From the UHGV virus genome UHGV-0209617: a DNA stretch of 64,000 nucleotides. One strand, written 5' to 3'. The translations under genes were made by a program, and so were the position numbers. The notes beneath the pieces are model-generated. The model worked only from the letters and a program-made list of their open reading frames with translations. It was not told the origin of the DNA and ran no database searches. The stretch comes from a virus. Shown in pieces: positions 9,046-9,830 of this stretch (position 1 is the first letter of the stretch; the number at the start of each line of letters is the position of its first letter).

Positions 9046-9288
9046 ATGAGCGTTGTAGTAAAAAAAATAGGTGATATGTCTGTAAAAGTAATCAGTGCAG
9101 ACGATATTGCTTCAATCCGCCGGGAAATAAGTAGTAGAGATATGGAAATGGATAAAAGAGCTGTTGTAGCCGTAAATTCAGCTATAAATAGGGCGCAGGT
9201 ATGTAATAAGCCTATAGCTAAATATGATTTGGCAAGTGGAAGGGCATATTTAGAATATGCTGATGGGAGTAGGGATTATGTCAACTAA
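9046..9288 (+). CDS. Small protein overlapping start of zeta-like kinase gene (possible cognate antitoxin)
   Basis: 80 aa ORF whose 3' end overlaps the start of the P-loop gene; no recognisable family. Confidence 0.3.
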   Translation: MSVVVKKIGDMSVKVISADDIASIRREISSRDMEMDKRAVVAVNSAINRAQVCNKPIAKYDLASGRAYLEYADGSRDYVN

Positions 9289-9830
9289 GAAGCAGATGAT
9301 ATTGGTGTTAGTTGGTTCCAATGGCTCTGGAAAAAGTACTATTACCAAATTCTTTGATGTTGTTGGCGAATATACTAATGCTGATGATATTGTAGCAGCC
9401 ACTGGAATGGATAATCTTGCTGCAGCACGAATGGCTGATGAAAAATGTATTCTGCTATAAAAGAAAAACGGGATTTTACCTTTGAAACGGTACTATCTTC
9501 AGAGTATAAGTTTGATATATTAAATAAGGCTAAAGCAGAGGGTATTTTATTAAGTGTGTATTTGTATTGACCGTGAATCCCTACATAAATGTAGCTAGAG
9601 TGCAGATGCGTGTAGCTAATGGTGGTCATTTTGTGGAAAAAGATAAGATTTTATCAAGATACTATAAATCATTGACAAATATAAAGAAACTGTTAGAAAT
9701 ATGTGATATTATGCATGTTTATGATAATACCGTTACCCCAACGCGTATCATACGAAAGCATAAGGATGATATTTCTACTTTTGCTAGTGAAATATGGAGC
9801 GAAGAGCAGATTCTAAAACTTATGTATTAA
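9278..9830 (+). pseudogene. Zeta-toxin-like P-loop kinase, disrupted by two frameshifts
   Basis: Walker A VLVGSNGSGKST in frame 2 (ORF 9257-9460); middle segment EKRDFTFETVLSSEYKFDILNKAKAEG only in frame 1; C-terminal RVANGGHFVEKDKILSRYYKSL in frame 0 (ORF 9567-9830); together about 190 aa. Confidence 0.5.

Follow-up and report, generated by a model that had tools for sequence, protein, structure and literature searches.

In zeta, the catalytic Asp67 follows the P-loop, and Arg158 both contacts the antitoxin and takes part in catalysis. Zeta and PezT bind UNAG through a GTXR motif (PMC6362051). Mycobacterium tuberculosis encodes a non-canonical pair with a small zeta-like toxin, PezT-Mtb/PezA-Mtb (Rv0366c-Rv0367c; PMC6362051; reviewed in PMC10532202), in which the toxin carries 9-GPNGAGKS-16, Asp36, Glu75-x-Val77, Arg116 and His122 (PMC6362051). 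Zeta-fold kinases are also paired with non-epsilon antitoxins in AvrRxo1-ORF1/ORF2 of Xanthomonas and ng_zeta1/ng_epsilon1 of Neisseria, and surveys of Klebsiella (PMC7192599) and E. coli (PMC10790755) have described orphan antitoxins that remain after the toxin has been lost or pseudogenized. Some orphan antitoxins are known as counter-defence genes (bioRxiv 10.1101/2024.07.11.602962).

The window, by which we mean the whole 64,000-nucleotide stretch of DNA analyzed here (UHGV virus genome UHGV-0209617), contains two small co-oriented genes at 9046-9830, the smaller one upstream, with overlapping stop and start, as in the type II layout. We consider this locus likely to be a type II toxin-antitoxin-like cassette in which the kinase has been killed by stepwise lesions and the 80-aa partner is intact. 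Its features are the following.

9046..9288, + strand: intact 80-aa partner gene, presumed antitoxin, from the ORF list; its stop overlaps the kinase start by 11 nt
9278..9830, + strand: pseudogene of a 184-aa small zeta-toxin-family P-loop kinase, 553 nt (555 minus 2), identified by Pfam and by alignment with intact alleles
9278..9445, + strand: kinase segment A, codons 1-56, frame 2, holding the Walker A codons 9314-9340
9448..9542, + strand: kinase segment B, codons 58-89, frame 1, from three-frame translation and DNA alignment
9543..9830, + strand: kinase segment C, codons 90-184 and stop, frame 3, from three-frame translation and DNA alignment
9441..9446, + strand: deletion site 1, A6 to A5 at 9441-9445 plus G>T at 9446, from alignment with intact alleles
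between 9542 and 9543, + strand: deletion site 2, C lost from GAGGG-C-TAT, from alignment with intact alleles
9293..9319, + strand: substitutions P6Q (9293-9295), A12V (9311-9313) and P14S (9317-9319) at conserved kinase residues

The ORF list and three-frame translation place the kinase in three pieces, at 9278-9460 in frame 2, where the P-loop GSNGSGKST is encoded, at 9445-9570 in frame 1 and at 9567-9830 in frame 3; the gene starts at the ATG at 9278 and its final stop lies at 9828-9830 in frame 3. The first-pass annotation had described a zeta-toxin-like kinase split over three forward frames by two frameshifts and recognizable from end to end. This description holds, as the joined pieces give a 184-aa protein that matches Pfam and aligns with intact proteins of 91% identity, although the reconstructed length had been put at 190 aa and is in fact 184 aa, exactly that of the intact family. 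In a comparison with the Pfam Zeta_toxin profile (PF06414), proposed beforehand as a check, the repaired protein scored 36.1 bits (E 5.7e-9) against a cut-off of 22.3 bits; the N-terminal piece alone gave only P-loop-level matches. A search of 5.8 billion proteins returned 1,456 relatives of the joined kinase, the best of which are intact 184-aa proteins of 88-91% identity with E values down to 1.7e-103, far outside what chance would give, and a precomputed PF06414 match accompanies every kinase homologue among the matches listed (120/120). The closest plasmid homologue, on Butyrivibrio proteoclasticus plasmid pCY360, is 72% identical, is named a "zeta toxin family protein" in RefSeq and also has an overlapping hypothetical gene upstream. 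Overall, 536 plasmid records contain a homologue. Searching the literature for COG4185 returned nothing.

The AlphaFold model of an intact allele (P0001) has a pLDDT of 91 and a pTM of 0.85, and its top Foldseek matches in the PDB are zeta (3q8x_D, 1gvn_D) and PezT (2p5t_B), with E values of about 2e-6, a probability of 1.00 and TMq of 0.59-0.63. Close behind in fold score are the polynucleotide kinase domain of Clostridium thermocellum and AvrRxo1, all of these matches lying at 13-19% identity, and a comparison with PDB sequences found no solved relative other than P-loop matches. With the Pfam profile passed and zeta and PezT as the best structural matches, the label "zeta-toxin-like" is accurate, for what is a distant, small zeta-like branch. 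As a member of a known defence system the kinase was rejected, since its HEC-01A and MAD3 matches (PADLOC, NCBIfam) are weak, at P-loop level, and far under any cut-off.

Across 59 homologues the invariant motifs of the kinase family are GPNGSGKS, NAD (D36), FETV (E70), R108/R112 and GGH (H118). D36, R108, R112 and H118 are spaced as in PezT-Mtb, in a comparison of motif spacing with the published residue numbers. The UNAG-binding GTXR is missing from both the consensus and the invariant columns of these 59 proteins, so UNAG kinase activity should not be assumed, and the substrate of the kinase is probably not UNAG.

With GTXR absent, and judging from motif spacing, we infer that the closest counterparts of the cassette are small zeta-like pairs of the non-canonical kind, PezT-Mtb among them. 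Both kinases are shorter than 200 aa, with an N-terminal P-loop GPNG(A/S)GKS, an aspartate some 17-20 residues further on, an E-x-V and an arginine six residues before a histidine (R112/H118 here, Arg116/His122 there); both lack GTXR and have a small partner gene directly upstream. The partners differ, in that PezA-Mtb is a ParD-like ribbon-helix-helix protein restricted to Actinobacteria, whereas neither a family nor a fold could be matched to the partner here. Epsilon/zeta of pSM19035 and PezAT of Streptococcus pneumoniae likewise share with this cassette the Zeta_toxin model, the best structural match (TM about 0.6) and an antitoxin upstream in one operon. However, their toxins are 14-19% identical to the kinase and have 253-287 aa compared with 184 aa here, GTXR is absent here, and the partner is neither a three-helix-bundle protein of the epsilon/PezA kind nor an HTH protein. 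AvrRxo1 and ng_zeta1 also match in fold (4z8q, 6eph) but are much larger, have known substrates (NAD, UDP-sugars) and are only 11-13% identical.

The 80-aa partner appears in GenBank as the hypothetical protein DAM45501.1. It has no match in Pfam, NCBIfam, PADLOC or PHROG, no sequence match and no significant fold match in the PDB, and no likeness in sequence or fold to known antitoxins, epsilon and PezA included. Its AlphaFold model, of moderate confidence (pLDDT 76), has two short strands, then one short and one long helix, and a sheet of three strands. The family comprises about 1,354 members in a word-indexed search and 434 clusters at 50% identity in an exhaustive one; those among the matches listed are all small stand-alone proteins of 36-172 aa that their sources name only "hypothetical protein". 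Its conserved core reads D-x-E-M-D-x-R-A-x-x-A-V...A...C-x-K-P-x-A-x-Y-D...A-Y...G...Y-V, and the partner in the window retains 13 of the 13 family-invariant residues. A search for a promoter or operator upstream of the gene gave promoter-like matches no more often than shuffled sequence did, and we claim none. The cassette is mildly novel only, in that the partner family has neither an assignment nor a known fold.

A kinase-seeded scan of one genome per GTDB species yielded 403 confirmed loci, and the analysis covered the best 80. These best 80 of 403 are 61-72% identical to the kinase and have a patchy distribution over Selenomonadaceae, Lachnospiraceae, Oscillospiraceae and other families. 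They do not include the genome of the window itself, whose nearest named relatives among them are Selenomonadaceae. In all 80 a partner homologue, located by tblastn, ends at the kinase start, with a stop/start overlap of 11 nt in 63 and of 8 nt in 12 of them; the overlap in the window is 11 nt. The 80-aa ORF that the first-pass annotation had noted across the kinase start is thus real, and because the overlap is conserved across the kinase-seeded loci, it is, as judged from these alignments, the ancestral coupled architecture and not a by-product of decay. At the level of gene order, these loci show that the two genes form an obligate pair in intact loci.

Loss of the two genes is asymmetric. 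The partner stands alone or beside kinase stumps at L007, L009/10, L096/97 and L109-111, and in IMG/VR the kinase is deleted or truncated in half of the evaluable partner loci (4/8). These partner-seeded surveys are small, and some loci were chosen by partner identity. Within the kinase-seeded set, damage to the partner is confined to the L055/L059 pair. In L059 (JBQKHF010000025.1, 3857-4570), partner residues 1-52 are fused in frame to an apparently intact kinase from residue 4 onward; L055 (Roseburia porci) has the same fusion out of frame, and both arose by a deletion between the KKP codons common to the partner (CKKP) and the kinase (KKPM). The single-chain protein of L059 is reminiscent of EzeT. 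As gene content shows, the partner commonly outlives the kinase, and the kinase is almost never found without a full partner. Such asymmetry is what a toxin-antitoxin pair predicts, since a toxin can safely be lost and an antitoxin cannot go first. The pairing and the asymmetric loss therefore support, by genomic association, the earlier suggestion that the 80-aa ORF is a former antitoxin, now orphaned.

Close relatives of the window partner that occur alone lie by an MNT/HepT pair, by a Tn916-like integrase or at chromosomal sites. Lone partners of 90-94% identity at L096 (3001-3948), L097 and L109-L111 are followed by MNT/HepT where the kinase would otherwise lie. The HepT toxin gene has in turn been cut to a 43-aa fragment in L109 and L111, a second toxin decaying beside its antitoxin.

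On the sequence evidence, the best-supported reading of the locus is a non-canonical type II toxin-antitoxin module, in which a zeta-fold phosphotransferase would be held in check by a coupled partner. The partner would be translationally coupled to the kinase through the 11-nt overlap; the kinase would be a growth-inhibiting phosphotransferase, with a substrate probably other than UNAG, that the partner may neutralize by direct binding. The apparently intact kinase of L059 speaks against this reading, because a kinase accompanied by only the first 52 partner residues is unexpected if the full partner is essential. Alternatively, the pair could have nothing to do with toxicity, the kinase being a small metabolite or nucleic-acid kinase and the partner a regulatory or substrate-presenting subunit, with loss here because it was dispensable. 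The absence of the UNAG-binding motif fits such a kinase, as do the similar fold scores of polynucleotide kinase and other small kinases and a partner that is unlike any known antitoxin. We nevertheless regard it as unlikely, given the tight overlapping pairing in 80/80 loci (the best 80 of 403), the patchy spread across families at 61-72% identity, reaching plasmids and integrative elements, and a loss in which the kinase goes and the partner stays. Moreover, PezT-Mtb, the nearest small zeta-like protein to have been characterized, has a bacteriostatic effect from which its upstream partner gives rescue (PMC6362051). A third component or true antitoxin in the downstream 89-aa ORF (9873-10142) was also considered and rejected, as this ORF is not by the kinase in L002 and in 79 of the 80 loci (best 80 of 403). 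It occurs only in close relatives, has a 51-nt deletion in L004-6, is absent from L002 and has no family match in Pfam, NCBIfam, PADLOC or PHROG.

The window is labeled as a phage contig, and its proteins match a third-party-annotated GenBank record labeled Caudoviricetes sp. (DAM454xx); genes for phage replication and structure are found from approximately 20 kb onward. Downstream of the cassette, at 10257-10286, a low-molecular-weight phosphatase gene survives only as its first 10 codons (MNKILFICHG). The gene is intact in L112 and L109 (155 aa, Pfam LMWPc), and homology of these loci to the window ends at 10286/10287, which places the cassette on the chromosomal side of an insertion breakpoint. 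The sequence to the right of 10286 looks, from this alignment, like an insertion into the phosphatase gene and comprises a DUF6273 gene, restriction-modification genes and phage genes. Among these is a four-gene LlaJI-type restriction-modification system at 12700-18378 with two methyltransferases and two endonuclease subunits, one of them a McrB-like GTPase, matched by PADLOC REase_II with E values of 1e-117 and 1e-138. A phage-borne cassette was rejected on the position of the breakpoint and on the small number of viral relatives, since INPHARED holds no near match to the locus and four weak protein matches, and IMG/VR holds nine loci. Other copies of the cassette adjoin Tn916-like integrase or restriction-modification genes. 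The region around the cassette also holds a truncated portal gene; it is a variable island in which several genes, those of the cassette among them, are decaying.

The position relative to the breakpoint also bears on the fate of the orphan partner. One could suppose that selection maintains it for stand-alone immunity or anti-addiction against related kinases of mobile elements or defence systems, since orphan partners recur in several contexts, the partner in the window keeps every invariant residue, the record itself is labeled as a phage contig and orphan antitoxins with a counter-defence role are known. Several observations make this very unlikely. The cassette is not inside the phage, lying as it does on the chromosomal side of 10286/10287; the family is rare in viral contigs (nine loci among 2.9 million contigs); and chance alone would be expected to leave a 240-nt ORF unbroken in the short time that the 553-nt kinase took to gather about eight changes. 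Partners beside dead or absent kinases are, in addition, altered at conserved positions, L095 having K55T, L112 having A50V and no start codon any longer, and L109 lacking 4 aa of the long helix. When the partner is compared in pairs that involve the orphan or decayed alleles retrieved by homology (L096, L109 and L112), pN/pS values are about 0.3-1.3, or all changes are non-synonymous, compared with 0.18 for partners of intact pairs, with very few changes in either group. The window partner differs from that of L001 by one non-synonymous and three synonymous changes, which is compatible with constraint or with too little time. Because partner copies by dead kinases drift, a new role for the orphan is unsupported, and to judge by these substitutions it is probably without a current role. 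Under the toxin-antitoxin reading, inactivation of the kinase would have left the partner dispensable, a survivor without a new job. We consider quite unlikely the broader proposal that the 80-aa protein is the founding member of an antitoxin family, as yet undescribed and new in fold, for small zeta-like kinases of gut and rumen Firmicutes, and that its orphans are kept as immunity against kinases on incoming plasmids, integrative elements and defence systems.

The lesions in the kinase were placed by aligning the DNA of the window with the intact metagenome alleles L001 (approximately 97% nucleotide identity) and L002 (approximately 92%). The first-pass annotation had located the frameshifts at 9455-9470 and 9555-9570; these are the resulting stop codons, and the deletions themselves lie at 9441-9446 and 9542/9543. 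Read-through of segment A out of frame ends at the stop at 9458-9460, and G>T at 9446 generates the ATG at 9445 with which the second ORF starts. The middle-frame text "ILLSVYLY" taken earlier for part of the kinase is likewise an out-of-frame translation, the homologous continuation being "YFIKCVFV" in frame 3 from 9543. The three substitutions affect residues that are invariant (A12, P14) or nearly invariant (P6) in the 59 homologues. The Walker A of the window reads GSNGSGKS and still satisfies the pattern GxxGxGK[ST], yet the invariant A12 and P14 have been replaced.

Public assemblies that encode the exact 80-aa protein or a near relative supplied independent metagenome contigs, on which the kinase is in the following states.

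Kinase intact: L001, L002
Deletion 1 alone: L095 (ERR10205542); L112-114 (SRR30770016, SRR30770019, SRR30770022)
Deletion 1 and G>T: L004 (SAMEA10739666); L005 (SRR30334848); L006 (ERR7365099)
Both deletions and the three substitutions: window; L003/L094 (SAMN10407345); L008
Kinase body deleted (window 9304-9764): L009, L010
Other DNA in place of the kinase: L007, L096/97, L109-111

These alleles form a nested series that spans more than 10 assemblies and gives the order of events. The kinase first lost one A from the A6 run, then gained G>T adjoining this site, and last lost the C about 100 nt downstream and accumulated substitutions at invariant P-loop residues; P6Q, A12V and P14S are not present in the single-deletion alleles. 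The alignments show the decay of the kinase to be real and stepwise. Between the intact alleles L001 and L002 the kinase pN/pS is 0.07; the dead kinases of the window and L004 differ by five non-synonymous changes and one synonymous, small counts that lie in the expected direction and point to relaxed selection on the kinase gene. As in the Klebsiella and E. coli surveys, the toxin has been lost or pseudogenized and the antitoxin remains; the difference is that here nested metagenome alleles display the steps of the decay and that the presumed antitoxin belongs to an undescribed family. Loss of a toxin that leaves its partner orphaned is ordinary biology, here unusually well documented by metagenomic alleles. 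The steps can be read as a natural time series in which the presumed toxin is struck first at a short homopolymer, further lesions follow and the partner then drifts.

That the frameshifts are sequencing or assembly artefacts, the kinase being intact in the organism, is extremely improbable. Site 1 does sit in a homopolymer (A6/A5), a classic place for such errors. However, at least seven further assemblies, which come from different samples and pipelines and vary in their linked SNPs, show the A5 state as well, and site 2 is no homopolymer of the lost base. Among the alleles compared, the deletion at site 2 is found only in the window, in L003/L094, which differ from the window by six SNPs within 8000-11000, and in L008. 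The double-deletion allele is also altered at invariant residues, and the kinase has been lost outright in other lineages. With both frameshifts recurring in independent assemblies as a nested series, assembly error is rejected and the frameshifts reported earlier are genuine. There is next to no chance that full-length kinase is still made through slippage during transcription or programmed frameshifting, and recoding is rejected. A -1 shift at the A-rich site 1 (GAAAAAT) would bring the reading frame back, but the zero-frame GAA AAA TGT contains no X_XXY_YYZ slippery heptamer, and a run of five A is not long enough for the transcript to slip efficiently. Site 2 (GAGGGTAT) lacks any slippery motif, unshifted alleles exist at approximately 97% DNA identity and invariant P-loop residues are gone.

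For annotation, 9278-9830 should be marked as a zeta-toxin-family kinase pseudogene, the three short ORFs there should not be called as genes, and the entry for the 80-aa ORF should identify it as the cognate partner of the kinase. The pair is widespread, with about 1,350 partner proteins and more than 1,450 kinases in public data, and with its unassigned partner family it is a reasonable target for work on non-canonical zeta-like systems.

The region to the left of the cassette contains further features. Just after a 190-aa gene, at 8756-8794, is a 17-bp inverted repeat (88% complementary, 5-nt loop) that may both act as a terminator and mark the left boundary of the shared block, since homology of the cassette to other loci starts at about 8768. 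Three paralogues of about 190-208 aa at 3820-4383, 7390-8016 and 8118-8690 have an N-terminal signal- or lipoprotein-like segment and share the motifs RLADIGAE... and VNQEGYIDS...; neither Pfam (3820-4383 and 8118-8690) nor PHROG (8118-8690) gave a match. At 1778-2269 is a phage portal fragment of 163 aa that covers positions 2-107 of the 321 of Pfam Phage_portal. It is probably the remnant of a second element, because 35 kb downstream there is a full phage that has packaging genes of its own.
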